In this document: in pieces, positions 2,781 through 43,960 of the stretch
Position numbering within the stretch: position 1 is the stretch's first letter
Layout of the letters: the number at the start of each line of letters is the position of its first letter
Source: a bacterium
GTDB lineage: Bacteria > CALINM01
Assembly (NCBI GenBank): GCA_041640455.1
Contig: JBEQAF010000001.1
Span: 1-62,020 of the forward strand
Direction: 5' to 3'
DNA: 62,020 bases
The notes under the pieces: generated by a model
The model's database searches: none
What the model was told of the DNA's origin: nothing
What the model saw: only the letters and a program-made list of their open reading frames with translations
Translations under genes and position numbers: made by a program

Positions 2781-2818
2781 ACTTTGTCATCTCTAAGGGA
2801 AGTTGATAAAATAAATAT

Positions 2819-3256
2819 ATGAGAATAGTGAAGGTCATAATAATTATTTTTCTGGTTTTCAGCTCTCGTGAGACATTTTCTCAGTGTACTATGACGGTTA
2901 CAAATATAAACTTCGGCGCATATGATGTACAATCTACTGCTAACCTTACTGCCACAGGAACCATTGCTGTTAACTGCGCAAGAAATGAAAATATAACCCT
3001 CTCAATAGGTCCCAGCGCTTACGGCGGGATAAATCCAAGGCTTATGAAGCATAGCTATTATAACGATTATCTAAACTATAACCTTTATCAGGACAATACC
3101 TATACCACCATCTGGGGAGATGGCTCTCAGGGGACAACGCCGGTTACAAGAAGGGTTAAAAACCGAACATTTACCGTTTATGGTGCGGTTTTCTTCGGGC
3201 AGGATGTTTCTGCCGGCAGTTATTCGGACACTCTAACCGTTACAGTTACTCCCTGA
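2819..3256 (+). CDS. spore coat protein U (SCPU) domain pilin subunit of a Csu/sigma-type pilus
   Basis: 145 aa with an N-terminal signal peptide. It has SCPU-like hallmarks (C..TV.NINFG.Y, TGTIAVNC, YNLYQD......IWGDG, tail ...DTLTVTVTP). It follows the chaperone and usher. Confidence 0.8.
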   Translation: MRIVKVIIIIFLVFSSRETFSQCTMTVTNINFGAYDVQSTANLTATGTIAVNCARNENITLSIGPSAYGGINPRLMKHSYYNDYLNYNLYQDNTYTTIWGDGSQGTTPVTRRVKNRTFTVYGAVFFGQDVSAGSYSDTLTVTVTP

Positions 3257-8324: not shown

Positions 8325-10625
8325 TTATTTTATACATACCCTTCTCACCTCTTTTAGATCCGTAAGCCCCTGAAATACCTTGAGTATGCCATCCTGTTTT
8401 AGAGTAGTCATACCATCCTTTATAGCCTGTTTTCTTATCTCCTCTATATCTGCTTTTCTTTTTATCAGCGATTTTAGATCGTCGGTACATTCAAGAATCT
8501 CGTGGATACCGAGTCTACCTTTATATCCACTGTTATTACACTTTGCGCAGCCCACAGGTCTTGCCAGCGTGACCTCTGCCAGATCAATACTTGCCTGAGG
8601 AAAATACTCTCTGCCATACTCTTCAATAATCTCTTCCAGCTCCTTTTTATCAGGCTTGTAGAGCTCCTTGCAGTCAGAGCAGAGCCTTCTCGCAAGCCTC
8701 TGAGCAAGGATAACAAGTAGTGCATCAGAGAAGCTGAAAGGATCCATCCCCATATCAAGAAGCCTTGTAACAGTTTCAGGTGCAGAATTGGTATGAAGTG
8801 TAGAAAACACCAGATGACCTGTAAGCGAAGATTCTATGCCTATAGCAGCTGTCTCCTCATCTCTCATCTCGCCCACCATAATTACATCCGGATCGGCTCT
8901 AAGAAAAGATCTTAAAGCAGCAGCAAAGGTCAAACCTATCTTGGGATTCACCTGAACCTGTCTTAATCCCCTCTGGGTAATCTCAACTGGATCCTCTGCT
9001 GTCCATATTTTCACATCTTCAGTGTTTATCTTTGCAATGGCAGAATGCAGGGTGGTAGTTTTTCCAGAACCGGTAGGTCCCACTACCAGAATTAGCCCAT
9101 AAGGCTTGTTAATGGCATTCTCAAAGACCCTGTAGTTTCTTTCTGTTAACCCGAGCTTCTCAAAGGGAAGCGGCTCACCGGAGGCAAGAATTCTCATTAC
9201 CACATCTTCAAGCTGACCTGCTGTAGGAACTGTGGCAACTCTTAGCTCCACATCTATGGGACCATATTTTTTAAAGTCAATCTTTCCGTCCTGAGGTTTC
9301 CTTCTTTCTGCTATATCAAGCCCTGCCATTATTTTAATCCTTGATACTATGGCATGCTTGTACTTATAAGGTATCTTTTGATAAATAGAGCATCTCCCAT
9401 CTATTCTTATTCTTACAATAGTATCCTTTTTACCAGGATAGGGCTCAATATGGATATCAGAAGCCTTTTTGTGGTAAGCATCATAGATTATCTTGTTAAC
9501 AAGCTGAACTATAACGCTATCCTCTTCAGATACCTTTTTTGCCTCCTCTTCCACATCTGGCTCATCAGTTTTATCAAGCTTCTCTAAAATCTCCGCTATG
9601 GAGCTTTTATCTTCCGCATATTTACCCAGCTTATAAAAGTAATCAATATAGGTCTCAATATCATCTCTCAATGCAACAAGAAAATTAATCCTTTTATATT
9701 CAGGATAGATAAACTTAATATAATCCTGTTTCTGAAGATCAGAAGGTTCATCCATTGCAATGTTAAGGACACCGTTTTCAATCTTTACAGGAACCCAGAG
9801 CTCCTTCTTTAGCCTATCTGGTTTTACTCTATTTAGTAAGTCCGGTAAAGGAGGGAGATTCTGGTCAAACACTATGTAGTCGGTGCCATAAAAAAGGCTC
9901 AAAGATTTTAAAACATCCTCTCTCAAAATACTAAACTCTTTAACAAGAACAGCCTCAACCCCTACTTTTGCTGTCTCAGGATGCTCATAGGCTCGCTCGA
10001 GAGTCTTCTCATCTATAAGATTTTTTCCCAGCAGATACTGGAATTTCCCTTTAGCGCGTGCTACCTTTGAAGCCATTGTAAGACGATGCAGGTTAAAAAT
10101 AGCTATGGATAAAGAGGTTGCCAGCTCAACGGAAAAAGACACATCCATTTCAGAAAAATTGCCTCCACCTTTTTTGTTAATAATCTGAATTACACCTATG
10201 AGGACATTCTGAAACTTCATGGGCACGCATAATACCTGCCTTGTCCTGAAACCACTCTTTTTGTCCCAGCTGTCATCGAACTTAAGCCTGGTATTAATCA
10301 TCATAAGCTCTTCGGCGTTATAGGCATCCATAATATTTACAATATCTCCGGTGGTTGCCACATAGCCTGCTATGCTTTCAGGGCTTATTGGTACCACAAT
10401 CTCTTTCAGATCATCTCCAGATTTTATTCTCGAAAATAGGATATTTTTTTTGGCATCAGCCAGAAAAATGGTTATCCTTTCTGCATCAAAAAGCTCAGCA
10501 ATGCTATCTTTCAGCTGAACAAGAATGGCATTCAGATTGCTGGCAGAGTGGATCTCATTTATCTTCTCCATCAGCTTCTTGCGATATATAAGCTGCCTTT
10601 TCAAAGACTCATTTTCTGTAGTCAT
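8325..10625 (-). CDS. GspE/PilB-family secretion ATPase with N-terminal GAF and GspE_N-like domains
   Basis: 766 aa. Walker A is VVGPTGSGKTTT, followed by MVGEMRD and GHLVFSTLHTN and the C-terminal CxxC...CxxC tetracysteine. The N-terminal region of about 170 aa is GAF-like. Confidence 0.85.
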   Translation of the reverse strand: MTTENESLKRQLIYRKKLMEKINEIHSASNLNAILVQLKDSIAELFDAERITIFLADAKKNILFSRIKSGDDLKEIVVPISPESIAGYVATTGDIVNIMDAYNAEELMMINTRLKFDDSWDKKSGFRTRQVLCVPMKFQNVLIGVIQIINKKGGGNFSEMDVSFSVELATSLSIAIFNLHRLTMASKVARAKGKFQYLLGKNLIDEKTLERAYEHPETAKVGVEAVLVKEFSILREDVLKSLSLFYGTDYIVFDQNLPPLPDLLNRVKPDRLKKELWVPVKIENGVLNIAMDEPSDLQKQDYIKFIYPEYKRINFLVALRDDIETYIDYFYKLGKYAEDKSSIAEILEKLDKTDEPDVEEEAKKVSEEDSVIVQLVNKIIYDAYHKKASDIHIEPYPGKKDTIVRIRIDGRCSIYQKIPYKYKHAIVSRIKIMAGLDIAERRKPQDGKIDFKKYGPIDVELRVATVPTAGQLEDVVMRILASGEPLPFEKLGLTERNYRVFENAINKPYGLILVVGPTGSGKTTTLHSAIAKINTEDVKIWTAEDPVEITQRGLRQVQVNPKIGLTFAAALRSFLRADPDVIMVGEMRDEETAAIGIESSLTGHLVFSTLHTNSAPETVTRLLDMGMDPFSFSDALLVILAQRLARRLCSDCKELYKPDKKELEEIIEEYGREYFPQASIDLAEVTLARPVGCAKCNNSGYKGRLGIHEILECTDDLKSLIKRKADIEEIRKQAIKDGMTTLKQDGILKVFQGLTDLKEVRRVCIK

Positions 10626-16496: not shown

Positions 16497-16520
16497 AAAA
16501 AACCCCGCCCGAAGGCGGGG
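16497..16520 (-). terminator. rho-independent terminator after the 12-heme cytochrome gene
   Basis: Minus-strand CCCCGCC-TTCG-GGCGGGG followed by TTTTTT. Confidence 0.8.
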
Positions 16521-16548
16521 CTCAGGAAAATAAACATTATTACTGGAT

Positions 16549-18732
16549 TTAAGGTCTTGAGTTACCCAGGTAAGCCTTTGCAGCTACCTTCTTTTCATCA
16601 GTCAAGGAAAGGCTATCAATAAAAGCAGACATATTGATGTTTCCGAGTACACCATCTTCAATAAAATCGATGGAATCCCAGAGTAATCTCTTTACATAGA
16701 TTCTATTGTGGGCATATCCACCTGGGTCATGAGCAAGAAGATTTATATTGAATGCGGCACCCATTACATCTTTTGCCTTCGACTTACCAAAAACCATAGC
16801 CCAGTTTCTAAAAGATGTTGAGCGGTTGTATTCATACCAATAAGGAAAAGTCTCTTTAAAATATATGCCCTTTGTTTCCATCGCTATTTTTCCTGCCTCA
16901 ATTGCTGCCTTATAATGTTCTTCTTCCTCTGATAATTTTTCAGCTGTAAGTTCATAAGTTCCTGTATGACAGGATGAGCAGATTTTGCTTGTAATCTCTG
17001 TTATCTTACCCGTGTTGTCCTTTTTAACATTAGTAAACAGATGACTATTGTCAGACGTCATATGGCAACCAACGCAGGGACCATTTTGGGTTAAACTCAG
17101 TGTTTCAGTTATGCCAATTTTATCATGTTTAAAATATGCTGGATTTGTATAGTTCTTCCCTTCATACTCATAACCAGTTGTTCCAAAAAGCTGACCACCA
17201 GCTGCAAGATAATGAGAATTTATAAATTGTAGAGAGCTAAAATTGCCAAGAGAGTTCTTTATAGAATCGCCTGTTTCACGACCCGTATGACAGGCAATAC
17301 AAATATTAGAACCCTTCAAATCTGGATAAGATACTGTTGCATTGTTACTATATGTAAAATTAAGTGCGCCAGGATCTCTTAAATCTCCAGTCCCAGCATT
17401 TGAATGACAACCCCAGCAATATAGCAGCTCATTCTGCCTGGAACCGCTAAACGATGAATAATTTTCAAGGTGTGCAAAGTTATTGCTGGCAGCATTATAA
17501 CCAGCGGGATTGTTCAGGAAGTTTGATACACCAGTTGCCGTATGGCATCTCTGACAGCTCTGTCTCTGTGAATGATCCCAGTTGTAATATGCCCAACCAG
17601 CACCTGTAGTATTGGTAACTCCTGCCTGCATTACAAGATTAACCTTATCCTGATTTCTTTGTCTTTTACCATATGTGGTAGATGAATAGGCTGCGTATTT
17701 AGCTTCATAAATATGCCCTGCATGGGCTGATTTTGCCCAGTCTGTATAGATTGTAGAGGGTCTCGTAGTATCTGGTCTCGTATTTGTTGTAAAATTATGA
17801 CCGTGGCATTCCATACAGGGGTTAGGCTCATTTTTTCTTATTACATATCCCTGAATTACCGATTCATTGCTCATACCTCTTCCTGAATCGGGAATATCAT
17901 AATGAGTGGTGGCTATGATTCTAAACCACGCTGTTTCATGATAAAACTTGTCAGAATTTACAGTTACAGGCACGCCATCCCTATAAGCTGTTGTAGTAAA
18001 TGTTTTACCAGAAGCGATAAGTTTAGTTCCATTAAAGTTGTAAAGGTTATGACAGCTTGTGCACAGATCAAACTCATCTACCAGTCTGTTTTTGTTTGGA
18101 TCCCAGGCAACAACTTTACCTGTTGCGGGATCTGTAGCTTTAACTGTTCTTATCTTTCCACCATGCTCATGACAGGTTTCACAGTTAATCTCTTTCTTAA
18201 ACTGATCTCTGTTCATAGAAAGAACGGGTCTGTAAGCACTATTTAGCAACACATTATCCTTATCACCCGTATAACCAAGTATATTGGCAAGAACTGCTCC
18301 TTCTGAGGTATGGCAACGATAACAGGGATCATTTGTTGTCTCCTCATAGGGCTTTGCATGATTTGAGTTAGCCCATTTACTTGCGCTGGTTTTTTTTGCA
18401 ACTGTTCCGTTATGACAGGATTCACATCTTGCCAGATCTGGTTTTGGATAGGGGATTGGTCCAATTCCGTTATGCTGGGATCCAGCACCATGGCAGCCTT
18501 CACAGCCAGCATTATCATTGCCATAGTGAGCAGACTTTTGATACTGAGCCACTATAGATTCACCTGTAATTCTGTCTGCAGTTGCACTGTGACACTGGTT
18601 GCACTTTGTGTCACCAACCTTTGTTATCTCACCTGAAACGCCCACTCTATTTTCAGAACCACAACCTATGAGAGTGAGACAGAGAGAGAAGAGGGCAATC
18701 ACTAAAAGAGAACTGAAATACTTTTTGCTCAT
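16549..18732 (-). CDS. dodecaheme c-type cytochrome lipoprotein (OmcB-like outer-membrane cytochrome)
   Basis: I counted 12 CxxCH motifs. The signal peptide has lipobox LIGC. The start is moved to ATG 18732 (MSKKYF...) because AGGAGG lies upstream. The size of about 727 aa fits. Confidence 0.85.
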   Translation of the reverse strand: MSKKYFSSLLVIALFSLCLTLIGCGSENRVGVSGEITKVGDTKCNQCHSATADRITGESIVAQYQKSAHYGNDNAGCEGCHGAGSQHNGIGPIPYPKPDLARCESCHNGTVAKKTSASKWANSNHAKPYEETTNDPCYRCHTSEGAVLANILGYTGDKDNVLLNSAYRPVLSMNRDQFKKEINCETCHEHGGKIRTVKATDPATGKVVAWDPNKNRLVDEFDLCTSCHNLYNFNGTKLIASGKTFTTTAYRDGVPVTVNSDKFYHETAWFRIIATTHYDIPDSGRGMSNESVIQGYVIRKNEPNPCMECHGHNFTTNTRPDTTRPSTIYTDWAKSAHAGHIYEAKYAAYSSTTYGKRQRNQDKVNLVMQAGVTNTTGAGWAYYNWDHSQRQSCQRCHTATGVSNFLNNPAGYNAASNNFAHLENYSSFSGSRQNELLYCWGCHSNAGTGDLRDPGALNFTYSNNATVSYPDLKGSNICIACHTGRETGDSIKNSLGNFSSLQFINSHYLAAGGQLFGTTGYEYEGKNYTNPAYFKHDKIGITETLSLTQNGPCVGCHMTSDNSHLFTNVKKDNTGKITEITSKICSSCHTGTYELTAEKLSEEEEHYKAAIEAGKIAMETKGIYFKETFPYWYEYNRSTSFRNWAMVFGKSKAKDVMGAAFNINLLAHDPGGYAHNRIYVKRLLWDSIDFIEDGVLGNINMSAFIDSLSLTDEKKVAAKAYLGNSRP

Positions 18733-18755
18733 ACTATCCTCCTTTCTATAAATTT

Positions 18756-19430
18756 TTAAATATGACATTTCTTGCAATAGGCGGCTTTTGTTCTATCAAG
18801 AAGTCTTTCCTTAATATTTTTCCAATCTTTGGGATGAGGATTTGCTCCGCCACTTTTATGACAGGGCACGCACACCCCTGCATCGGGATGACAGCTCTGG
18901 CAGGATTGAAGATTTCTTCTTGCCTCGAGGGCATGTTCCTGATTCCAGATATATGACTGGGAAGAGCCTGCAGGCTTATGAGATTTTATCCTTAAAGTTC
19001 CCTTATTGCCAATTTTTGTATGGCAGTCTTCACAAAATCTTGACTCATGACATCTATAACAGTTTTGTGGATTATCCATTGCCTTTATGGAATGAATAGA
19101 GATAAAGTCAGATCGATGGGACTTTGGCATATAATTACCTTTATAAGATATGCTCTTTTTCAGATCCTGTGTAATGCCCCCGCCTGTATGACAGTCAAGG
19201 CAGAATGACTGTCCATGACATTCTTTACAGTTGCTGTCAGCCTTTTCTGCCAGAAGTCGATGAGTTTTTAGAAAGTCTTCATCATGATTGGGCGGCACAT
19301 TTGAAGACAAATGACAATCGGCACACTCGTTAAGATTCATAGCTCTAAACTCTCTGTGGCTTGTTCTACCGTATAGAACTGAGGAGACCATAATAACCGA
19401 AAGGAGAACTGCAAAAACTATCTTTCTCAT
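18756..19430 (-). CDS. periplasmic octaheme c-type cytochrome (OmaB-like)
   Basis: 224 aa with a Sec signal peptide and 8 CxxCH motifs. Confidence 0.85.
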   Translation of the reverse strand: MRKIVFAVLLSVIMVSSVLYGRTSHREFRAMNLNECADCHLSSNVPPNHDEDFLKTHRLLAEKADSNCKECHGQSFCLDCHTGGGITQDLKKSISYKGNYMPKSHRSDFISIHSIKAMDNPQNCYRCHESRFCEDCHTKIGNKGTLRIKSHKPAGSSQSYIWNQEHALEARRNLQSCQSCHPDAGVCVPCHKSGGANPHPKDWKNIKERLLDRTKAAYCKKCHI

Positions 19431-19447
19431 CTTCTCCCCCCTTTCCT

Positions 19448-20644
19448 TTAAAATTTTACGTTAAGGGCTATAAACCCTTTGTAGTTATTTTTATAATCAT
19501 AGCTCACATTATCTTCAAACTTTGCAGCCAGGGAGATATTCTTTCTGATATCATAGGTAAACCCCGCCCAGTATCTTTTTGCTATATCTTCACGTTCTGC
19601 CCTTTTAAAATCATCATAATCTACTCCCCCTGATATGGCCATATTCTTTACTTTATACTCTCCGTCAAGTCTTATTCCGCCAACCTTTCCTGCGTAGCCG
19701 TTTCTTTTCTCGTAGCTGGCATTAACTGTGAGATTTTTTAACGGCATAGCTCTTAAGCCTATCTCATAAAGATCTGCCTCTGCATCTCCATCAAAATCCT
19801 CTCTGGCATATCCGATAGTAACCCCATAGTTTTTATTAATGGCGTACTGACCTTTTAAAGCATACTCCCTGTATTTGTCCACTGCAAATACACTATAAAC
19901 TGAAGTATAGTCAAAGGAGGGGAAGCTCTGATAATATTCGGCTTTTATCACAAGATCCTTAACAGGTGTTGACTTGAGCCCCAGTAGAAACTGGTTGGTG
20001 GATTTAAAGACATAATCATATTTTGTATCCAGATAGAAACTTAAATTCTTAGCTATGGGACCATCGGCAGAAAAACCGATTATCTCCTTTGAACGGTCAT
20101 TTCGGTCATATCTAACCGCATAGCTTAACTGAAGATAATAGTTTTTAAAATTTGAAAAGGCACTGGCTGACCATAAGTAAGAATCTTTCGCTCCAAGCTC
20201 GCTTCTTTCTGAGAACCTAACCTCTCTCCCCCCAAAAAATCTAAAACCCACAGGTCCCAGATTTGTTAAAGTAAGCGAGCCGCCATCAATAATTCCCGAA
20301 AGGGCATTAGAATAGGCATACTGTCTTCCAAGCCATATATGGGCTTTACCGTTAAGCAGGTCTTCGTAGCTTAAGTAAAGATAATAAAGCCGCGCATCCA
20401 GATCATCGCTTGAGCTGAGCTGTTTATTAAGTCTACCATAGGCATGAATGGATAGCTTATCGTCTTTAGTTAGCCTGGATACATCTACCTTAAGATACTC
20501 TGCAATATCTTTTTCGTTATCTCTTGTAATAAAATTATTATACCAGAGGTACTGAGTGGAACTCTTAAAATTTATCTCTGCTGAAAAAACAACGGTTGCG
20601 ATAAAAACAAAGCTCAGAGAGATTAAAAATCTTAGTTTAGCCAT
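19448..20644 (-). CDS. outer-membrane beta-barrel protein (OmbB-like porin of a porin-cytochrome complex)
   Basis: Signal peptide, alternating aromatic/polar beta-strand pattern, and a C-terminal ...ALNVKF. It is the first gene of the three-gene cytochrome cluster. Confidence 0.7.
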   Translation of the reverse strand: MAKLRFLISLSFVFIATVVFSAEINFKSSTQYLWYNNFITRDNEKDIAEYLKVDVSRLTKDDKLSIHAYGRLNKQLSSSDDLDARLYYLYLSYEDLLNGKAHIWLGRQYAYSNALSGIIDGGSLTLTNLGPVGFRFFGGREVRFSERSELGAKDSYLWSASAFSNFKNYYLQLSYAVRYDRNDRSKEIIGFSADGPIAKNLSFYLDTKYDYVFKSTNQFLLGLKSTPVKDLVIKAEYYQSFPSFDYTSVYSVFAVDKYREYALKGQYAINKNYGVTIGYAREDFDGDAEADLYEIGLRAMPLKNLTVNASYEKRNGYAGKVGGIRLDGEYKVKNMAISGGVDYDDFKRAEREDIAKRYWAGFTYDIRKNISLAAKFEDNVSYDYKNNYKGFIALNVKF

Positions 20645-20820
20645 CTTCCCTCCTTATTTATATGAATTTTAATTTTTTTTAATATTTACCTTAAGTAAAC
20701 CACAGGGGGTGTTTTTTGTCAATCCAGAATCTCAAAAAAATTTAAATTTTAATTTTTTAATGTAACAAACGTTACGTTATTTGATAGGATTTTTTATCTA
20801 TTCTGTCAAAAATTTGTCAT

Positions 20821-23118
20821 CTAAAATCCAAGAGCGCACTGGCCAATACTAATGCAGGCGTCGTTTGGAGGGCTAAATCGGTTTATTAATGGTGTTAGTC
20901 CAAGCTCGTGGGATTTTTTGAAAAAATGATAGGTCAGATAGCTGTTCTGAAAGCTACCGCCAGAGAAGATTATTTTTTTGCAGCCCTTTTCCTTTGATAG
21001 CTTTTCCACTACTAACATAAAGGCATGTACAACTGTTGAATGAAATTTTATGGATATTACACTTCTGTCAGCATCACTTAGAAAATCTGAAAAAATATCA
21101 ATTAATATCTGATTTACATCAATCTCATAGGGGTTTGTTTCGTTAAAAGAGATGTCATAAGCGCCATACCAATCTTTTAGCTCAAATTTTTTGTATATGA
21201 GATTTTCCAGCTCCTGGGCGGGCTCACCTTCGTAACTCACCTTCTTTCTAAAGCCAAGAAGATAGGAAACACAGTCAAAAAGCCGACCAAGACTGGATGT
21301 TAAGACCTTTGATTGAGACACAGCTTTTGAAAAAGCACCAATATTGGCTCTACTTGGCTCTGAAAGCTGATTTAGCAGTCGTTCATCTTCAAATTTGGAG
21401 GAAAGAAGATAGCTCAAGAACATTTTTTCTGGATCTTTTATAGCACTATCACCAAAAGGAAAAGGCTTGTAGGAAAGCTTGCCAGCTCTATTAAAGCCTT
21501 CTTTTAAGCTTCCATAGAAGATCTCCCCGCCCCAGATCATGCCGTCCTCTCCGTATCCTGTGCCGTCCAAGGCAATTCCTACCACGGGCTCATCAAAAAT
21601 ATTGTTTTCCAGACAGACTGATGCGATATGGGCTTTGTGATGTTGAACCATTATGAGATCTTTATTAGCAGCTATCTCATGAGCATGACTGGTGCTTAGA
21701 AAATTAGGATGCAGATCACAGACATATAGATCTGGCTCAAACTCAAATATTTTTTTAAAGTCTTCAATGGTCTCCAGATAGGACTCATAGCTTTCGTAAT
21801 CTGCAAGGTCTCCTATGTACTGAGACTGAATGAGACTATCGTTTTTTAAAATACTTACGGTAGCCTTGAGGTCAGAGCCAAGCCCCATAATCTTTTTTGA
21901 AAAGCTTTTTGTTAGAAAAAGCGGTTTTGGTGCGTAGCCTCTGCTTTTTCGAAAAAGCAGTTCAATGGACTGTCTGTCAGGAAGGTCTATCTCTATCACT
22001 TTGACGACCGAGTCTTCCACATATCTTACAATCTCTCTGTTGTGGACCAAAAAGTAGTCTGCCAGGTCCTTTAGCCGTTCAATATCCATATCTTTATAAA
22101 CGATGGGCTCACCTGAGATATTAGCAGATGTGCAGATAAGAATCGGAATTTTTTCAAGCATAAGATAATGAAAGGGCGCATAGGGTAGCATTACTCCGTA
22201 GTATGGGCTACTACCTGCTATGGGATCAGGATCTGTGGCTATTATGTTTTTCTTTTTCTTTAGCAGTACAATGGGTTTTTCTTTGCTATTAAGTATTTGC
22301 TTCTCATGGTGGTTTATCTCCACATATTCTTTGAGAAGCTCCTCATCTCGAAAAAGCAGGGCAAAGGGCTTTCGGTCTCTCTTTTTTCTTTCTCTTAAGG
22401 TTAACACAGCTTCTAAATTTGTTGCATCCAGAATAAGATGATACCCGCCTACACCTTTTACAGCAATAATACTGCCTTTTTTTAAAAGCCCATTTACCTC
22501 GTCAAAGATGTTAGCTACCTTTATCTCCTTAAAATCTTTATTTAATAGTTTATACACAGGTCCACAGACTTCACAGGAGATGGGCTGGGCATGATACCTT
22601 CTTGATCTAATATTTTTATATTCAGCCTCACAGGCAGGACACATCTCAAAGACGCTCATGGTGGTATTTTTCCTGTCGTAGGGATGGTCTCTGATTATGG
22701 AAAAGCGAGGTCCACAGTTAGTGCAGTTAACAAAAGGATACTTATAAAACCTGCTTGAGGGTGAAAAGAAATCTTCCTTACAGTCTCTACATACTGCCAC
22801 GTCAGGAGAAAGATATATATTTGAGCTATCTCCTGAAAAAGAAGGGGCTATGCTAAAATCTTTAAAATCAAAAGAATCAATCTTTTGAATCTCAATCTGG
22901 TTTATAATAGCAAGGGGTGGTGGAGAGTTTTTCAGCTCTTCAAGATAGGAGCTGACAGCCCTTTTACTGCCTGTAACTACAATCTCCACTCCCTTTTTTG
23001 TGTTTCTTACGATGCCCTTAATATTATATTTTTCTGACAGGTTAAATAAGAAGGGTCTAAAACCAACCCCCTGAACAACACCCGAAACCTCTATCCTTAA
23101 ACTTTCTTTTTCTTCCAT
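20821..23118 (-). CDS. hypF: [NiFe]-hydrogenase maturation carbamoyltransferase HypF
   Basis: Acylphosphatase N-terminus (VSGVVQGVGFRPF), two CxxC..CxxC zinc fingers, and YrdC-like and Kae1-like domains. 765 aa. Confidence 0.95.
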   Translation of the reverse strand: MEEKESLRIEVSGVVQGVGFRPFLFNLSEKYNIKGIVRNTKKGVEIVVTGSKRAVSSYLEELKNSPPPLAIINQIEIQKIDSFDFKDFSIAPSFSGDSSNIYLSPDVAVCRDCKEDFFSPSSRFYKYPFVNCTNCGPRFSIIRDHPYDRKNTTMSVFEMCPACEAEYKNIRSRRYHAQPISCEVCGPVYKLLNKDFKEIKVANIFDEVNGLLKKGSIIAVKGVGGYHLILDATNLEAVLTLRERKKRDRKPFALLFRDEELLKEYVEINHHEKQILNSKEKPIVLLKKKKNIIATDPDPIAGSSPYYGVMLPYAPFHYLMLEKIPILICTSANISGEPIVYKDMDIERLKDLADYFLVHNREIVRYVEDSVVKVIEIDLPDRQSIELLFRKSRGYAPKPLFLTKSFSKKIMGLGSDLKATVSILKNDSLIQSQYIGDLADYESYESYLETIEDFKKIFEFEPDLYVCDLHPNFLSTSHAHEIAANKDLIMVQHHKAHIASVCLENNIFDEPVVGIALDGTGYGEDGMIWGGEIFYGSLKEGFNRAGKLSYKPFPFGDSAIKDPEKMFLSYLLSSKFEDERLLNQLSEPSRANIGAFSKAVSQSKVLTSSLGRLFDCVSYLLGFRKKVSYEGEPAQELENLIYKKFELKDWYGAYDISFNETNPYEIDVNQILIDIFSDFLSDADRSVISIKFHSTVVHAFMLVVEKLSKEKGCKKIIFSGGSFQNSYLTYHFFKKSHELGLTPLINRFSPPNDACISIGQCALGF

Positions 23119-23759
23119 CTAATTTTTTCTTCTAAGAATCTTACGAAGTCAAATAAAGTCTCTTCTTTTGTTGCCTGAATTTCAAATATTCTGACCTTAG
23201 GGTTTATGGAAAGAATGTCATTTTTTGCCTTTTCAAGTGAGAAGTTTGTATAGGGGATAAGATCAGTTTTGTTTATAAGCACGCAGTCTGCCTTAAAAAA
23301 TGTGCCAGGATATTTTTTTGGTTTATCATCTCCTTCTGTAACAGAGAGTATAACCAGCTTAAAATCCTCTCCCAGATAAAAATCACTGGGGCAGACAAGA
23401 TTACCCACATTTTCAATAATTAAAACGTCAAGCTTTGACAGGTCAAAAAATGAAAGCCCTTCTCTTATCATACCCGCATCGAGATGGCAGGCACCTTTCG
23501 TATTTAGCTGGACTGAAAGAACACCGGGCTTTGAAAGCCTTTCTGCGTCAACCGTATCTTCTATGTCGCCTACAATAACACCGATTCTGTAAAATCTTGA
23601 GAGATTTTTTATTAGATTTTCAAGAAAAGTGGTCTTTCCTGCACCGGGAGAGCTGATAAGATTAAATACCAGCACACCATGTTCATCAAACCTTTCTTTT
23701 AACTGCTTTGCAATCTCATCGTTACCCTTAAGAATAGGATAGACAACCTTAACCTTCAA
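23097..23759 (-). CDS. hypB: hydrogenase nickel-incorporation GTPase HypB
   Basis: SSPGAGKTT P-loop, ENVGNLVCP and NKTDL. Confidence 0.9.
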   Translation of the reverse strand: MKVKVVYPILKGNDEIAKQLKERFDEHGVLVFNLISSPGAGKTTFLENLIKNLSRFYRIGVIVGDIEDTVDAERLSKPGVLSVQLNTKGACHLDAGMIREGLSFFDLSKLDVLIIENVGNLVCPSDFYLGEDFKLVILSVTEGDDKPKKYPGTFFKADCVLINKTDLIPYTNFSLEKAKNDILSINPKVRIFEIQATKEETLFDFVRFLEEKIRWKKKKV

Positions 23760-24096
23760 CGCTCTCTCCTTCTATCTCTTTAATATTAAGCTCCATTCCT
23801 TCAGTTATATTCAGGGAGATATTTTTGCAAACAGGGCAGATGTAACTTAGATTAGTCAGTGTAATCTCTTTGTTACACTCAGAGCAAAAGGCGGTTATAT
23901 CTTTTTTAACAAATTCAAAAGATATATTTAGCCCCTCCTCCTTAATAATGCTACTTAAACAAAAGCTTAAGGCATCTATATTTACACCGCTACCCTCACC
24001 TACCTCGACAATAACCCGGCTGGCTTTTATTTTCTCTCTTTTTTCAATATCTTTTACGGCTTCAATAGTTGATAGGGCAACGGAGGCTTCATGCAT
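23749..24096 (-). CDS. hypA: hydrogenase nickel-insertion protein HypA
   Basis: MHE N-terminus and a CxxC...CxxC zinc site. 115 aa. Confidence 0.9.
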   Translation of the reverse strand: MHEASVALSTIEAVKDIEKREKIKASRVIVEVGEGSGVNIDALSFCLSSIIKEEGLNISFEFVKKDITAFCSECNKEITLTNLSYICPVCKNISLNITEGMELNIKEIEGESVEG

Positions 24097-24550
24097 TACT
24101 TAAACATTTTAATATTAAATCATTGACAATGGAAATGAATTTTTCTTTTCTATCCATGAGAGTTTTGGTGGGAGAGCCTATCTTATCAATACATTCAGGC
24201 ACTATAGCTACCACATGGCATCTGGCTTTGCTACCCATCATCTTTGCAAGCTTATAAACATCCTCAATGCCAATGTCATGAAAGGATGTAATCATTTTGT
24301 CCACATAGCTCACATCATCCATAGGGAATGAGTAGATAGAGCCAGGCTCATCATCAGCCCTTAACACATCGAGGAAAATTATATATTCATAATCAAAAAA
24401 AAGTGGAAGGAGCGTATGCCCTGATACGCTACCTTCCAGAAAGTCTATCTTTAACGAGGGAGAAGGTAGGCTTTTTAACTCTCTTACAATATGGATACCA
24501 AAACCTTCATCACTGAGAAGCTCGTTACCAAGCCCTACCACTGCTATCAT
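24089..24550 (-). CDS. [NiFe]-hydrogenase large-subunit C-terminal maturation endopeptidase (HyaD/HupD family)
   Basis: VVGLGNELLSDEGFG N-terminus, 153 aa, located in the hydrogenase operon. Confidence 0.85.
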   Translation of the reverse strand: MIAVVGLGNELLSDEGFGIHIVRELKSLPSPSLKIDFLEGSVSGHTLLPLFFDYEYIIFLDVLRADDEPGSIYSFPMDDVSYVDKMITSFHDIGIEDVYKLAKMMGSKARCHVVAIVPECIDKIGSPTKTLMDRKEKFISIVNDLILKCLSNA

Positions 24551-24553
24551 ATA

Positions 24554-25168
24554 TTAACTAACTTTTTTTGTCTCATAGCCTGTAATCATGGAAATGTAAT
24601 AATCCTTGACAGTTACACCAGTGCTACCCAGATAGATATGTGCCATCAGGGAAATTAGATAAAATATGGTCAGTATAAAATGCCAGAACCTCACGTATCC
24701 TAAACCGCTGAAAAAATCAACCACCACTCTGAATATCTCAGGCTCATAAAGGGCAAAGCCTGTTAAAAACTGGGGGATAAAAACCAGTGGCCAGATAGAA
24801 TATGCTATTTTTTGCCCAGGATTATATTTACCAAAATCAGGTTTGGGAGCCTTTGTAAAAATCCCCCAGAGATAATATTTTAAAAGCACAAAAAACTGAG
24901 GAATGTCAGATGGTCTTACAATAATATCAAAGGCTTTCCTTGTAACAAAAAAGTAATAATATGCCCTTGACACATAGCACCATACAATTAGCCATGCAAA
25001 TAAAAAATGTATGTATCTTGCCATAGAGATGGTGCCAAAAAGGTGAACATATCTTGGCATGGCAATCTGAAGCCCTGTAAGCACAAGCATGATCATAGAA
25101 AGAGCATGCACAGCATGGGTTATTCTAACATACAAAGGGTGTCTGTAATATCTTACATATTCAGCCAT
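24554..25168 (-). CDS. Ni/Fe-hydrogenase b-type cytochrome membrane subunit
   Basis: Four-helix membrane protein with conserved His residues (RITHAVHA...), directly downstream of the large subunit. Confidence 0.85.
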   Translation of the reverse strand: MAEYVRYYRHPLYVRITHAVHALSMIMLVLTGLQIAMPRYVHLFGTISMARYIHFLFAWLIVWCYVSRAYYYFFVTRKAFDIIVRPSDIPQFFVLLKYYLWGIFTKAPKPDFGKYNPGQKIAYSIWPLVFIPQFLTGFALYEPEIFRVVVDFFSGLGYVRFWHFILTIFYLISLMAHIYLGSTGVTVKDYYISMITGYETKKVS

Positions 25169-25176
25169 GTTACCCC

Positions 25177-26736
25177 CTATATAACCTTAAACTTTTTGAC
25201 CTGATTTGTCTCCGGATGAATTACATGGATTGCGCAGGCAAGACAGGGGTCAAAGGATCTTACAACTCTAACTATCTCAATGGGATTTTCTGGATCAGCT
25301 ATGGGTGTGCCGATTAAAGCCTGTTCAACAACGCCTTTCACACCTTTTTCATCAGCAGGACCGCAGTTCCATGTGGATGGGACCACACACTGATATCTTT
25401 CAATCTTGTGATTCTTAATCTTAATCCAGTGACCTAAGGCGCCTCTTTGAGCCTCAGTAAGCCCATATCCTTCGCTCTCTTTTGGCACTTCATATCTGTT
25501 TATTGTTGGTTTATCAGGATTGAGCTGGAGTAGCCATTCCTCTGTCTTATCGGCAATAATTTTTAGCTCTAAAGCCCTTGCAGCATGCCTTCCGAGCACC
25601 GAGAAAAGCACTGAAACATCAGCATTGAGAGATTTGAGGGTATTGTTAATAAGCGAGGATACCTCTGGTCTCTTTCCAGACAGATGGGTAACTGCCATTC
25701 TGGCAAGAGGTCCTACCTCCATAGCATGTCCGTCATATCTTGCTGCCTTTACCCATGTGTAGGCATTTGCCTTGTTCGGATCTGCCTGCGTCTCACCTTC
25801 ATAAGGATGCAGATTAGACTTTGAAGAGTACTTTGCGTAAAACACATCTTCTTTTATCTTTGCCTGATCAAGATTATCCAGCTTACCATTTACAAACGCG
25901 CCAGGAATGTGATAAAGCTCTGTCCCTTCGTTGTTAAGTTCAAAGATACCAAATGCCAGCAGATTTTTATGTCCGGCACCTATTTTAAAATACTGAGGGT
26001 ATGCCTTTGCAACGGCTAACACATCGGGAATATAACAGGTATCAATAAACTCCTTTATTCTTCTTAATCTGTAAAGATATGAGGCTATTCTTTCTGGATT
26101 AACCTGCTCAGCTGCGCCGCCGGGCACGATACCTGTAACATGGGGCATCTTTCCACCCCAGATAGCTATCATCTCCTGAGCTGTTCTTGCCATCTCAAAT
26201 GCCTTTACATAATGGGAGATGGCGGTAAGATTAAGCTCCTTATCTTTAATATAATCGCCCTTATATCTGGGCATAAAAGGAGCTGCGGCGGTTTTACTTC
26301 CTGAAGCGACCTCTCTTTTTACCCATTCCTTAATATTATTCATTGTTGGATCATTGCCTTTGTAATCCAGAATAGCAGTTATATCAACATAATCAAGAGC
26401 TGAAAGCTGATAAAAATGTAGTATGTGAGAGTGGAGCAGGTTTCCAGCTGCCATTAAATTTCTAATAATTCTTCCGTTGTCGGGAGGATTAACCTTAAAT
26501 GCTGCATCAAGGGTCTTTGCCGATGCCATAGCATGTCCAACCGGACAGACTCCGCATATTCTCTGGGTAACATTTATGGCATCCTGAGGATCTCTTTCCT
26601 GAAGAATAATTTCCCAGCCTCTAAACATATCACCCCTTGAACGGGCATCTTTAATCTTTCCACCTTCTATCTCAACTTCAATTGAGTAATGCCCCTCTAT
26701 TCTTGTTATAGGATCAACAACTATTTTTTTAGCCAT
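25177..26736 (-). CDS. [NiFe]-hydrogenase large subunit (membrane-bound uptake type)
   Basis: N-terminal RIEGH and RICGVCP. C-terminal DPCLACAIH followed by a 15-aa extension for protease cleavage. Confidence 0.95.
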   Translation of the reverse strand: MAKKIVVDPITRIEGHYSIEVEIEGGKIKDARSRGDMFRGWEIILQERDPQDAINVTQRICGVCPVGHAMASAKTLDAAFKVNPPDNGRIIRNLMAAGNLLHSHILHFYQLSALDYVDITAILDYKGNDPTMNNIKEWVKREVASGSKTAAAPFMPRYKGDYIKDKELNLTAISHYVKAFEMARTAQEMIAIWGGKMPHVTGIVPGGAAEQVNPERIASYLYRLRRIKEFIDTCYIPDVLAVAKAYPQYFKIGAGHKNLLAFGIFELNNEGTELYHIPGAFVNGKLDNLDQAKIKEDVFYAKYSSKSNLHPYEGETQADPNKANAYTWVKAARYDGHAMEVGPLARMAVTHLSGKRPEVSSLINNTLKSLNADVSVLFSVLGRHAARALELKIIADKTEEWLLQLNPDKPTINRYEVPKESEGYGLTEAQRGALGHWIKIKNHKIERYQCVVPSTWNCGPADEKGVKGVVEQALIGTPIADPENPIEIVRVVRSFDPCLACAIHVIHPETNQVKKFKVI

Positions 26737-27801
26737 TTATTTCTCCTCCTTTACTTTCTCAGTCTCTTCTTTCTTTTTTGAACTAAAAGCCCTTCCAAGA
26801 GCATGGGCTACAATACCACCTAAGGTTGCAGCGCCCACGATTGTTCCAAATTTGTCAGCCTTTACCTTAAGGCCGGGTATGCCAGGAACTTTTGCCTCAG
26901 GCAGTCTCATATATACACCATTCCCCTTTGAGCCGATAAAGCTCTCAGCTGCGCAGCCGATACAGGGAGAGCCACCCCTGATAGGCCAGTTAACGCCTGT
27001 ATTCCACTGATAGTTCGGGCAGTCTGCGTATGTAATTGGTCCCTTACATCCCAGCAGATACATACATTTTTTCTCACCAAAGGTTCTGGCAAAATCGCCT
27101 CTTTCAAAGAAAGGTCTCATCTCGCAATTGTCATGGATAAGTCTTCCAAAAAATACGAGAGGTCTTCTCTTTGAATCAAGCGCAGGAACTCCAAATAGCT
27201 TTAAATGAGCCAGGAGACCTACCAGATGATGGGGTCTTCCTGGACATCCTGGCAGATTAACAAGCTTTGATGTACCTATAACATCCATTACAGATTTTGC
27301 GCCGGTTGGGTTTGGTTCGCCTGCAGGTATACCGCCCCATGTGGCGCAGGTGCCGTAAGCAACCACATACTGGGCTTTTTCGCTAAGTCTTTTTGTCCAG
27401 TCAAGCATGGTAATGGGTTTTCCGTTCTCATCCTCACCAATTGTGCAGTACATACCATTATCCTTAACGGGAATAGCTCCCTCAATCACAAGAATAAACT
27501 TTTCATCAGATTTTAATACCTCATGAAGCACATTTATGCACTGATGACCCGATGCAGCCATCACAGTCTGATGAAACTTAAGGCTTATAATATCTGTAAC
27601 AATATCAGGAACAGTTGGCGCAACCGTATTAAGAAGAGACTCGGAACATCCCGCACAGTTTTGCCCCTGAATCCAGACAACAGGAATATTTTTTCCCTGT
27701 TTTTCAATGGCATGGGCTACCTTTGTAAGAAAGCTGTTTGACATGATAGCCGCACTGGCGCCACCAAGCACTTTAAGAAAATCTCGTCTTGAAAAATTCA
27801 T
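26737..27801 (-). CDS. [NiFe]-hydrogenase small subunit with Tat signal and C-terminal membrane anchor
   Basis: Twin-arginine signal MNFSRRDFLK, Fe-S cysteine patterns (CAGCSES...), and a hydrophobic C-terminal helix. Confidence 0.95.
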   Translation of the reverse strand: MNFSRRDFLKVLGGASAAIMSNSFLTKVAHAIEKQGKNIPVVWIQGQNCAGCSESLLNTVAPTVPDIVTDIISLKFHQTVMAASGHQCINVLHEVLKSDEKFILVIEGAIPVKDNGMYCTIGEDENGKPITMLDWTKRLSEKAQYVVAYGTCATWGGIPAGEPNPTGAKSVMDVIGTSKLVNLPGCPGRPHHLVGLLAHLKLFGVPALDSKRRPLVFFGRLIHDNCEMRPFFERGDFARTFGEKKCMYLLGCKGPITYADCPNYQWNTGVNWPIRGGSPCIGCAAESFIGSKGNGVYMRLPEAKVPGIPGLKVKADKFGTIVGAATLGGIVAHALGRAFSSKKKEETEKVKEEK

Positions 27802-27853: not shown

Positions 27854-27869
27854 ATCAACAAAAATGCCA
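27854..27869 (-). promoter_or_regulatory. weak sigma54-like -24/-12 candidate upstream of the [NiFe]-hydrogenase operon
   Basis: The minus strand reads TGGCAT-TTTTG-TTGAT. The -24 element is good. The -12 element reads TTGA instead of TTGC. It ends about 52 nt upstream of the ATG. Confidence 0.3.
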
Positions 27870-28007: not shown

Positions 28008-28027
28008 GTGTAATCTATAGATTACAC
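28008..28027. promoter_or_regulatory. perfect 20-bp palindrome GTGTAAT-CTATAG-ATTACAC (candidate operator/UAS)
   Basis: Read directly from the sequence. It lies between the dut stop and the hydrogenase operon. The same 7-bp arms and 6-bp spacing recur at 38053-38072. Confidence 0.5.
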
Positions 28028-32292: not shown

Positions 32293-34548
32293 CTAAAGCA
32301 TTATATCTTCTCTTTTAATATTGTATTTTTTCATCAGATTGTGAAAGGTTGGTCTGGGAATACCTGCCAGCTCCGCCGCCTTTTTTACATTGCCCAGTGT
32401 CTGTTTGAGATATTTTTTTATCAGATTTTTTTCAAAAAAGGTGAGCTGCTCATCTCTCTGCTCCCAGAGATTTTTATTTGTCACAAGCACATCGATGGTG
32501 GGAGATATATTCTGAATATGGATTGGAAAATCCTTTAGTTTAAGCTCCTCTCCCTGTGAGAGTATAATGGCTCTCTCCACCACATTTGCCAGCTCTCTTA
32601 TATTTCCAGGCCAGTTGTAGGCTTTGAGGTATTTAATTATCTCCTTTTCGTAGGAGCTTATTTTTTTGCCGATCTTTTTTGAGTTGACCTCAATGAGATG
32701 GTGCAAAAAGTATGGGATATCATCCTTCCTCTCTCTTAAAGGTGGCAGATGAATGCTGAATACGTTAAGTCTATAGTAAAGGTCTTCTCTGAACTTCCCT
32801 TCATCAATAAGCTGTTCAAGATTTCTGTTGGTAGCTGCAATAACCCTAACATCAATCTTTTTTACCTCATTACTGCCGAGAGGTCTTATCTCCCCATTCT
32901 GTAAAACTCTCAGAAGCTTGGTCTGAAGATTGAGCGGCATATCACCTATCTCATCCAGAAAGATAGTGCCGTTATGAGCCACCTCCAGTAACCCCTTTTT
33001 ATTCTCCACTGCTCCCGTAAAAGCGCCCTTCACATGACCAAAAAGCTCGCTTTCAAGAAGATGCTCTGTTAATGTGGTGCAGTTTACGGTAATCATAGGT
33101 CTGTCTTTTCTCGTCGATTTCTGATGCAAAAGGGTGGCAACCATCTCCTTACCTGTTCCGCTTTCGCCTCTGATAAGTACTGTGGTATTGGTAGGAGCCA
33201 CTTTTTCCAGCTGTTCCCAGATCTCCCGCATCCGCTGGGTCTTCCCCAGAATAAAATTAAAATCCTTATCTTTGTATAGCTCCTTCTGAATTATCTTATA
33301 ATCATTTAGCAGATTAATATTGCTTACCGATATCTTGTTTAGTAAATAGGGGAGACACATCTCTATCTCTGCAAGCCCCATTATGACTGCCTTTGCCTTC
33401 TCATAGCAGTTGTCATATCCGCAGGCACCGCAGTTAAGATTTTCACCGCCATTGTAGGTTTTCATCTCATCAAGAATATTTTTTATCTCCTCTTCCTTTG
33501 GCTCCACAAATAATAACCTGTCTTTTTTAAAAATCTTTTTTTTCAGCCCTGACTGAGGCATTATCTTTTCCTCATACTCTCCCTGAAAGTAATAATCTTT
33601 AATGTATCTTCTGACCCTCTCAGCTCTTTCATAAATGGTTCCTTTATCCTTCATGATGGGTCCGTCTATACAGCCTTTACAGAAAAGTATGTCCACAAAT
33701 TTAGGAGACACATCGCCCTGTCTGAGTGAGTGAAGAAAGCTCATTACCTCATCTTTACCATCTATAACAAGTATATCGCTGTCAAGGATGTCTGTGCCTA
33801 TTGCGGCAGTTCTGATAAGCCCACCAGACAGGGAAAAAGACCTACCGATTCTTGGAAAATAGCCATCAAAATCGGAAAAGCTCTTTCTTTTTGGATTTAT
33901 ATCTCTTTTTTGAAACTCCTCATCCACCTCTTTGAAAGTATAGACCGAGTCAATAGCGCCTTTGTCATCTTTTATTTCACTTTTTTTTGCCACACAGGGA
34001 CCAATAAAAAACACCATGGAGTTATCTATCTTCTCTTTTATGAGCCTGCCCATAGCTATCATAGGAGATACAATGGGAACAAGATTTTCAATCAGTTCGG
34101 GATAAAATTTTGAGATAAGGTTTACAATAGCAGGGCAGGGAGAAGAGATATAGGTCTTTTTCTCAATGGTCTTTGCCTTAAGGATAAACTCCCTGTAACT
34201 ATCAATTATTATCTCCGCACCATATGCAACCTCATAGACATAGTTAAAACCCAGCTTTCTTAAGGCAGAAACTATCTGCAGCGGATGGCAGTCTTTGTAA
34301 TAGGACACAAAAGACGGGGCAAGAAGCGCCACAAGATTTTTATTTTTTCTAATTGCCAGATCAATAGAGAGCCCCCTCTCCACATCTTTGGCGTCCTGAG
34401 AGCAGAGCTTTATGCAGTTTCCACATACAATGCAGTTTTCCTGGATCACATAAGCCTGGTCGTTCTGAACCTTAATAGCCTTAACTGGACAGCCTCTAAT
34501 GCAGGAGTAGCATTTTTTGCACAGCCCCTCTTTAGTCTGAACAATCAT
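32293..34548 (-). CDS. sigma54-dependent transcriptional activator with an N-terminal 2x[4Fe-4S] ferredoxin, an [FeFe]-hydrogenase-like H-domain and an extra Cys4 FeS module
   Basis: [12 protein letters not shown] and [12 protein letters not shown] are followed by hydrogenase large-subunit-like motifs [14 protein letters not shown] and FCKGCIDGP, then [12 protein letters not shown]+ motifs are GESGTGKE and GAFTGA, with a C-terminal Fis-type HTH. There is no receiver domain. Confidence 0.85.
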
Positions 34549-38226: not shown

Positions 38227-38242
38227 AGCAATCACCATGCCA
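38227..38242 (-). promoter_or_regulatory. sigma54 -24/-12 promoter candidate upstream of hydGEF-regulator
   Basis: The minus strand reads TGGCAT-GGTGA-TTGCT, matching TGGCAC-N5-TTGCW at every key position (GG-N10-GC). It lies about 200 nt upstream of the hydG ATG. Confidence 0.55.
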
Positions 38243-40139: not shown

Positions 40140-40245
40140 CTAATACCCTCCTTTTTGGATTTTTTAAATTTAAAAATAAATAAAGCCAAAATTTTTAACC
40201 CTTCCTATCACCCCCTTTTTTTAAAATACTGTTTTACTCCTGCCA

Positions 40246-40276
40246 ATTATATACCAATTAAAATAAAACGTGTCAA
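40246..40276 (-). promoter_or_regulatory. sigma70-type promoter candidate for the porin gene
   Basis: The minus strand reads TTGACA-cgttttattttaattgg-TATATAAT. This gives TATATA at 17-nt spacing or TATAAT at 19-nt spacing. Confidence 0.4.
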
Positions 40277-40287
40277 GAAAAAAAGTT

Positions 40288-43948: not shown

Positions 43949-43960
43949 AACGCCCCCCCT

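Follow-up and report, generated by a model that had tools for sequence, protein, structure and literature searches.

Does a compact cytochrome cluster of an uncultured bacterium encode a conduit for electrons across the outer membrane, of the kind known from Geobacter? The question is raised by three minus-strand genes at positions 16,549 to 20,644 of the 62,020-nucleotide stretch of DNA analysed here (contig JBEQAF010000001.1, positions 1 to 62,020; the whole stretch is called the window below). An earlier note, made from the sequence alone, had matched these genes in composition and order to the porin-cytochrome (Pcc) module ombB-omaB-omcB of Geobacter sulfurreducens. The match has held: the predicted proteins align with their Geobacter counterparts from end to end, the genes stand in the same order, and 20 of 20 haem motifs are kept together with the lipobox cysteine. 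The three genes are very probably an orthologue set of the Geobacter OmbB-OmaB-OmcB Pcc complex, and their products would form an electron conduit across the outer membrane.

Three genes homologous to ombB, omaB and omcB

The first gene (19448..20644, minus strand) encodes an OmbB-like predicted outer-membrane beta-barrel protein of 398 aa, which is free of cysteine, starts with a signal sequence (MAKLRFLISLSFVFIATVVFSA|EIN) and has phenylalanine as its last residue (...ALNVKF). After a gap of 17 nt (19431-19447) comes a gene encoding an OmaB-like, putatively periplasmic octahaem c-type cytochrome (18756..19430, minus strand). This protein of 224 aa contains exactly eight CxxCH motifs and 16 histidines, and its Sec-type signal peptide lacks a lipobox cysteine, as expected of a non-lipoprotein. 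A further 23 nt (18733-18755) separate it from the gene for an OmcB-like dodecahaem cytochrome (16549..18732, minus strand), a predicted outer-membrane lipoprotein of 727 aa in which the CxxCH motifs number exactly 12 and the lipobox, LIG-C24, has glycine at position +2. Strong Shine-Dalgarno sites are present at all three starts. The unit is closed by an intrinsic terminator (16500..16523, minus strand), whose hairpin begins 26 nt past the stop codon of the dodecahaem gene: its 10-pair stem, seven pairs of which are GC, is closed by a TTCG loop and leads into a T-rich tail.

This layout agrees with the earlier reading of the locus. The list of open reading frames (ORFs) confirmed three tightly spaced minus-strand genes with gaps of 17 and 23 nt, and the strong terminator placed after the third gene was found as a GC-rich 10-bp hairpin followed by a run of T. 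The 398-aa signal-peptide barrel ending in F was recovered as described and proved in addition to contain no cysteine, the count of eight CxxCH motifs in the 224-aa secreted cytochrome was exact, and the cytochrome of about 727 aa with 12 CxxCH motifs and an LIGC lipobox stands if translation begins at the ATG at 18732. The mechanical ORF of this last gene is longer, running from a TTG (16549..18777, 742 aa). The TTG start at 18777 was discarded, and the ATG at 18732 was taken as the real start because an AGGAGG ribosome-binding site precedes it and the N-terminus that results can be aligned with that of OmcB. In a six-frame scan of the 62-kb window, no ORF with two or more CxxCH motifs was found besides the two cytochromes of the cluster. 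The CxxCH pattern is therefore not an effect of chance or of base composition.

As reference we used the G. sulfurreducens orfR-ombB-omaB-omcB locus (L001), and each protein was compared with its counterpart by pairwise BLASTP. The barrel protein is 38% identical to OmbB over 396 aa (E 6e-89). Between the octahaem protein and OmaB the identity is 48% over 231 aa (E 5e-77), and eight of eight CxxCH motifs are in register; the dodecahaem protein matches OmcB along its whole length with 50% identity (E 0). Each of the three aligns from end to end, and the order barrel, octahaem, dodecahaem is identical to that of L001. A homology search with the 727-aa protein returned G. sulfurreducens OmcB and OmcC, both 50% identical over 100% of the query (E ~1e-228); the best named homologues carry the NCBI labels 'C-type polyheme cytochrome OmcB' or 'OmcC'. 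The earlier note had allowed that the barrel might be an ordinary porin unrelated to OmbB, which the full-length alignment with OmbB rules out.

The residues on which haem binding and lipid attachment would depend are conserved. In a four-sequence alignment with OmcB and OmcC, the G-C-G-S-E-N context of the lipobox and 12 of 12 CxxCH motifs are invariant. A larger alignment of 44 homologues of the 727-aa protein shows no variation in the 12 CxxCH motifs, at Cys24 or at nine other histidine positions, and hardly any at another five; there are therefore enough histidines for bis-His ligation of 12 haems. The 16 histidines of the octahaem protein are likewise enough for bis-His ligation of its eight haems. 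Two conserved histidines outside the motifs sit in a C-terminal domain of the dodecahaem protein that has no haem motifs and is among its best conserved parts.

A published survey collected Pcc clusters by BLAST matches with E < 0.01 to OmbB, OmaB and OmcB, together with trans-membrane motifs, CX2CH motifs and gene clustering (PMC4245776). The present locus falls within these limits by a wide margin. It combines an OmbB-like barrel in the range of 18-22 strands, an OmaB-like protein with eight CX2CH motifs and an OmcB-like lipoprotein with 12, encoded in the order omb-oma-omc.

Barrel fold, related loci and possible use of the predicted conduit

An AlphaFold2 model of the barrel protein, built with 48 homologues (pLDDT 88.1, pTM 0.77), has 22 beta strands after the signal helix, as counted by DSSP. 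The earlier note had proposed the strand number as a check, and the result lies inside the published range of 18-22 for Pcc porins; 20 strands were predicted for OmbB and 28 for MtrB (PMC4245776, PMC4282303). The figure of 20 for OmbB comes from an older HMM prediction, so the discrepancy with the 22 strands of our model reflects a difference of method and not a proven difference of structure. A Foldseek search of the PDB with the model gave only generic outer-membrane barrels (ushers, OmpU, Occ porins), with TM-scores of 0.52 or less and identities of 14% or less; it yielded no solved close relative, and MtrB was absent from the top 50 fold matches. The Pfam family Porin_4 matched the barrel protein with 26.5 bits, against a cutoff of 27. 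The barrel family numbers 302 word-indexed homologues, and an exhaustive profile search among 1.84 billion representatives found 774 clusters (50% identity) at E <= 1e-3, of which 51 had E <= 1e-30. It is a specialised family, not a huge one.

Relatives of the barrel were surveyed in one genome per GTDB species. The survey gave 143 encoded relatives of this kind, and 79 distinct loci were kept; the genome of the window was not among the species representatives that were hit. The hosts belong to the Geobacterales and Desulfuromonadales, the Syntrophales (Smithella, Syntrophus), the Nitrospirota, Anaeromyxobacter and unclassified 'Deltaproteobacteria'. An OmaB-like cytochrome is encoded in 74 of the 75 loci with enough downstream DNA. 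It lies directly downstream of the barrel gene in 72, typically after a gap of 15-18 nt and with eight CxxCH motifs. The next gene encodes a cytochrome of 7-12 haems in most loci. It is a full-length OmcB-like protein in only 17 of 64 loci, the rest having different cytochromes of 7-10 haems, many of which carry a lipobox. Porin and periplasmic cytochrome are reported to co-evolve, the outer cytochrome being exchangeable (PMC4245776), and the pattern of 74/75 against 17/64 therefore reproduces that finding. The cluster in the window belongs to the complete, OmcB-type subset of the surveyed loci. One relative has Pcc proteins 71-75% identical to those of the window, with the same three genes and the same flanks. 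For annotation these counts suggest a simple rule: an OmbB-type barrel and an OmaB-type octahaem cytochrome are almost always adjacent, and the outer cytochrome is interchangeable.

Some loci of the survey depart from the three-gene arrangement in other ways. Four of them (L013, L014, L073 and L078) lack a large outer cytochrome: an OmaB-like protein with six or seven haems is followed there by a protein of about 260-270 aa with a single haem. In L011 an eight-haem OmaB-like protein is followed by a one-haem protein of 262 aa. In L005 the barrel shares only 46% identity with that of the window but the cytochromes share 66-71%, a hint that parts of conduits have been exchanged in mosaic fashion.

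The fold and family searches also bear on whether the barrel and cytochromes might be something other than a conduit. Such a reading could point to Porin_4, a general family and the sole Pfam match of the barrel, which falls just below its cutoff, to the generic barrels returned by Foldseek with their low TM-scores, and to nitrite reductase NrfA as the best fold match of the 727-aa model, a match that is not significant (E 0.06). Against it stand the full-length alignment of the barrel with OmbB, the joint presence of barrel and octahaem cytochrome in 74 of 75 loci, and a lipobox context shared by the 727-aa lipoprotein with OmcB, which is an outer-membrane cytochrome (PMC4282303). Motif counts also show that signatures of catalytic sites such as CxxCK are absent. 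We regard the non-conduit reading as effectively refuted.

If the three proteins form a Pcc conduit, the 22-strand barrel would serve as an insulating sheath in the outer membrane. The secreted octahaem cytochrome would enter it from the periplasmic side and take up electrons there, and the lipid-anchored dodecahaem cytochrome would cap it on the outer face. Along the resulting chain of about 20 haems, electrons could travel from carriers in the periplasm to an extracellular acceptor, for example humics, an electrode, a partner cell or some form of Fe(III) or Mn(IV). Experimental support for the function of the Geobacter complex includes deletion and complementation phenotypes (PMC4282303, PMC4589669, PMC6148476). 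The heterotrimer of about 20 haems, electron transfer across the bilayer and the need for the complex in extracellular Fe(III) reduction were demonstrated in G. sulfurreducens only (PMC4282303, PMC4589669, PMC6148476). For the complex encoded here, assembly, exposure at the cell surface, an outward direction of electron flow and the physiological acceptor would follow if it behaves as its Geobacter counterpart. By the same analogy we infer that the organism is capable of extracellular electron transfer or metal reduction. Metal reduction has the standing of an inference because the window holds no other multihaem gene.

Several observations weigh against an assignment to the Geobacter complex or against its supposed role. 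A stricter criterion, which Jimenez Otero et al. 2018 applied in searching the Desulfuromonadales, asks of each component an identity of 40% or more across no less than 75% of its length (PMC6148476); by this Desulfuromonadales-scoped cutoff, the matches to OmaB (48%) and OmcB (50%) lie above 40% and the match to OmbB (38%) just below. None of the three proteins reached the cutoff of an NCBIfam model. The locus lacks the TetR regulator OrfR, a feature of the G. sulfurreducens clusters that published surveys do not demand, and hypF lies upstream instead; among the fetched loci an OrfR homologue was present in only 16, including the reference L001, all labelled as Geobacter, as related Geobacterales or Desulfuromonadales, or as unclassified Deltaproteobacteria. 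The six-frame scan of the 62-kb window revealed no inner-membrane or periplasmic partner cytochromes. Finally, according to Shi et al. 2014 (PMC4245776), not every bacterium with a pcc cluster reduces solid oxides of Fe(III) or Mn(IV).

The last point also supports an alternative view of the physiology, in which the same Pcc conduit is used mainly for something other than outward reduction of metal oxides: for electron uptake (Fe(II) oxidation, a cathode, direct interspecies transfer) or for soluble and colloidal acceptors (humics, sulfur species, metalloid oxyanions). Many close homologues of the barrel come from metagenome-assembled genomes (MAGs) of Syntrophales, Smithella and Syntrophus and from Nitrospirota, for which respiration of metal oxides is not an obvious lifestyle. 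The isolated Geobacter complex moreover works in both directions across liposome membranes, since dithionite outside reduces an enclosed dye and Fe(III) re-oxidises it (PMC4282303). On the other hand, the 12-haem component is a genuine OmcB orthologue (50% identity), and in G. sulfurreducens both Fe(III) citrate and Fe(III) oxide are reached mainly through clusters based on OmcB (PMC6148476). A periplasmic H2-uptake hydrogenase, encoded beside the cluster in the window and in one relative, would fit outward flow of electrons from H2. We consider this alternative rather unlikely as the main use; it concerns physiology and not gene identity, and to that extent it overlaps with the assignment to the OmbB-OmaB-OmcB complex.

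Upstream region and neighbouring hydrogenase genes

A candidate sigma-70 promoter, TTGACA-17 nt-TTTACT (20694..20722, minus strand), lies 50 nt upstream of the ATG of the barrel gene. The automatic scan missed it because the scan demands an A at the second position of the -10 element. Farther upstream of the barrel gene, the palindromic block ACGTAAC-GTTT-GTTACAT (20760..20777, minus strand), followed by AAAAAATTA, is a candidate operator. In an alignment of the window with two relatives (L002 and L004), the block CGTAAC-N4-GTT[AT]CAT...AAAAAATTA is conserved, despite the different upstream genes of L004, and the -35 hexamers of the window and the relatives read TTGACA, TTGACA and TTAACA. Because the upstream block and the TTGACA -35 element are common to the window and both relatives, the pcc genes most likely constitute a separate transcription unit with a promoter of their own, and not a fixed part of the hydrogenase operon.

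That operon (27801..24089, minus strand) encodes a predicted periplasmic [NiFe] uptake hydrogenase and comprises genes for a small subunit with a Tat signal (RRDFLK), a large subunit, a cytochrome b and a maturation protease. The large subunit, of 519 aa, matches the NCBIfam model NF033181 above cutoff and ends in DPCLAC, so that it is of the Cys type rather than the Sec type. After the operon, and directly upstream of the pcc genes, come hypA, hypB and hypF (24096..20821, minus strand). On the 3' side, the pcc cluster is followed by cysK and a gene for an O-acetylhomoserine sulfhydrylase-type enzyme. The relative with Pcc proteins 71-75% identical has hypB-hypF upstream and cysK-metY downstream, as in the window. 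The relative with the most similar barrel (L004, 78%), in contrast, has an ABC transporter upstream and no hyp genes. A conserved hyp-pcc operon was considered as a general feature and discarded, since one relative is alike and L004, with the closest barrel, is different. Two further sequence elements were noted near the hydrogenase genes: a weak sigma-54-like site, TGGCAT-N5-TTGAT, at 27854..27869, and a perfect palindrome, TGTAATC-TATA-GATTACA, at 28009..28026, between dut and the hydrogenase genes.

It might be supposed that the pcc genes and the [NiFe] hydrogenase and hyp genes upstream of them are co-transcribed or co-regulated as one module leading from H2 to the outside. Between 27801 and 16549 the minus strand carries the genes for the hydrogenase subunits and protease, then hypA, hypB and hypF and finally the pcc trio, and no terminator is predicted between hypF and the barrel gene. 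One relative keeps hypB and hypF immediately upstream of its barrel gene, and clusters with OmcBC homologues that also encode Hox hydrogenases have been seen in some Desulfuromonadales (PMC6148476). However, the gap between hypF and the barrel gene measures 176 nt and contains a good -35/-10 pair, and L004 has kept the promoter and palindrome region with an ABC transporter in place of the hyp genes. Nor was HypF encoded within 6 kb in any of the loci from other GTDB species. The cytochrome b subunit, in addition, points to delivery of electrons by the hydrogenase to the quinone pool and not directly to periplasmic cytochromes. We therefore think a single module of this kind improbable. The adjacency of hydrogenase and pcc genes is suggestive and does not amount to a fixed coupling.

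Farther upstream, the region 32293..38029 (minus strand) encodes a sigma-54 enhancer-binding protein of 751 aa with N-terminal ferredoxin-like clusters and an [FeFe]-hydrogenase H-cluster domain (PF02906, 159 bits). Its H-cluster motifs are altered, one of them reading FCKGCIDGP. Immediately upstream, on the strand of the activator gene, are hydF and genes of the HydG and HydE radical-SAM types, and a near-consensus sigma-54 promoter, TGGCAT-N5-TTGCT (38227..38242, minus strand), precedes the maturase and activator genes. No catalytic [FeFe] hydrogenase is encoded in the window. The 751-aa protein may be an H2-sensing transcription activator with H-cluster maturases of its own. As regards the pcc genes, no sigma-54-like site was found in the region upstream of them (20645-20820), and the activator is therefore unlikely to drive them directly.

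A bolder proposal is that in this deep-branching, low-GC lineage an OmcB-type conduit has been recruited beside a periplasmic [NiFe] uptake hydrogenase as a compact module taking H2 in and sending electrons out, with the sigma-54 activator perhaps conferring control by H2. We offer it as a long shot. If true, about 22 kb of DNA would encode a lithotrophic metabolism in which H2 drives the extracellular reduction of metals, in a clade without cultured relatives.

Host lineage and comparison with known conduits

The GC content of the window is about 39%, and that of the cluster, 0.38-0.41, matches the rest. Recent horizontal transfer of the cluster was considered, and no compositional sign of it was seen. 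The PNPase encoded in the window is 70-83% identical to proteins from a small clade, one of them labelled 'Proteobacteria bacterium', and at most 60% identical to all others. The genomes nearest to the window among those with the cluster bear the label 'Proteobacteria/Pseudomonadota bacterium'. With this cluster the uncultured host becomes a candidate for extracellular electron transfer, and one more complete OmcB-type conduit is added outside the Geobacterales; the understanding of the system is unchanged. It is an ordinary further instance of Pcc, as OmcB-type clusters outside Geobacter are routinely picked up and their homologues in MAGs are named OmcB by NCBI or by automated pipelines. What interest the finding has rests on the host lineage and on the neighbouring genes for a hydrogenase and an H2-sensor-like regulator.

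Other genes of the window were noted in passing. Two large probable outer-membrane proteins are encoded in 38784..42377 (minus strand), on the 3' side of a gene for a rhodanese-domain protein and on the same strand. One, of 451 aa, gave partial matches to the DESULF_POR1 homotrimeric porin and to Alginate_exp; the other, of 454 aa, had no family match. A rhodanese-like lipoprotein also belongs to ExtHIJKL of Geobacter, but there is no cytochrome gene at 38784..42377 and the resemblance may mean nothing. A type II/IV secretion ATPase of 766 aa (T2SSE; 8325..10625, minus strand) has N-terminal GAF and MshEN domains, a sensory N-terminus of a kind not usual in the ATPases of pili or secretion systems. 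At 1011..3256 (plus strand) an outer-membrane usher, perhaps truncated at its 5' end through the ORF start that was chosen, precedes a pilin-like protein with an SCPU (spore coat protein U) domain, and the two look like part of a chaperone-usher fibre system. An RtcB RNA ligase paired with archease (42491..44389, minus strand) and a tungsten-type aldehyde:ferredoxin oxidoreductase (AFOR; 54236..55906, minus strand) are consistent with a strict anaerobe, and neither narrows the taxonomy.

The closest known systems are OmbB-OmaB-OmcB and OmbC-OmaC-OmcC of G. sulfurreducens (PMC4282303), which belong to Group I of the published survey (PMC4245776). Protein sizes are similar (398, 224 and 727 aa here, 403, 236 and 742 aa in Geobacter), two short insertions of Geobacter OmcB being missing from the 727-aa protein, and the gap between barrel and octahaem genes is similarly short. 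Unlike the Geobacter clusters, the present one has neither a TetR-type OrfR or OrfS regulator nor a tandem duplication, and its upstream region differs, with a conserved palindrome of its own. The host also differs, being a low-GC (~39%), uncultured, non-Geobacter lineage.

Three-gene pcc clusters of the OmcB type have been described outside Geobacter, for example in Deferribacter thermophilus (PMC13186404), as have clusters with OmcBC homologues in other Desulfuromonadales (PMC6148476). By their published descriptions they resemble the present one in combining an OmcB homologue, a smaller cytochrome and a porin, and some likewise stand beside hydrogenase genes. In the window, however, the hydrogenase is not of the Hox type but appears to be a periplasmic, Tat-exported uptake enzyme linked to cytochrome b. 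Its adjacency is not kept even among the nearest relatives.

The Geobacter conduits ExtABCD, ExtEFG and ExtHIJKL share the architecture of periplasmic cytochrome, barrel and lipoprotein redox proteins, and ExtEFG too lies within a hydrogenase-related transcription unit (PMC6148476). The proteins of the window are closest to OmcB and OmcC, and the only match to a curated Ext model was to ExtS, with 18.9 bits against a cutoff of 100; the cluster is set apart from the Ext systems on these grounds, without direct sequence comparison.

The solved MtrB (PDB 6R2Q) is a barrel of 26 strands, against the 22 modelled for the barrel of the window. The Shewanella MtrCAB complex in that structure follows the same principle as the conduit proposed here: one multihaem cytochrome in the periplasm and another, a lipoprotein, at the surface, with a barrel as sheath and about 20 haems in total. 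The barrel of the window gave no match to the Pfam family MtrB_PioB at E <= 1, and the 224-aa protein scored 13.8 bits with the NCBIfam model for DmsE/MtrA-type decahaem cytochromes, whose cutoff is 192. Searches of PDB sequences with both cytochromes gave nothing significant, and MtrA, MtrB and MtrC were recovered neither by sequence nor by fold searches; it appears that no solved relative of the Pcc components is detectable by sequence search. The 727-aa protein does have a domain-level match to PF22113, which represents domains II/IV of MtrC/MtrF (63.8 bits), and this raised the possibility of an MtrC-like identity. The model of this protein has a pLDDT of 71.8, with the N-terminal 195 residues poorly modelled, and a Foldseek search with it gave no significant match, neither MtrC nor OmcA being found. 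The MtrC-like identity was dropped because of this lack of Foldseek support. The protein has 12 haem motifs, against the 10 haems of the four-domain fold of the MtrC/OmcA family. Thus the cluster would work like MtrCAB, but as judged by these searches it is not a member of that family, nor of the MtoAB and PioAB conduits, in keeping with the view that the Pcc and Mtr systems are convergent (PMC4282303).

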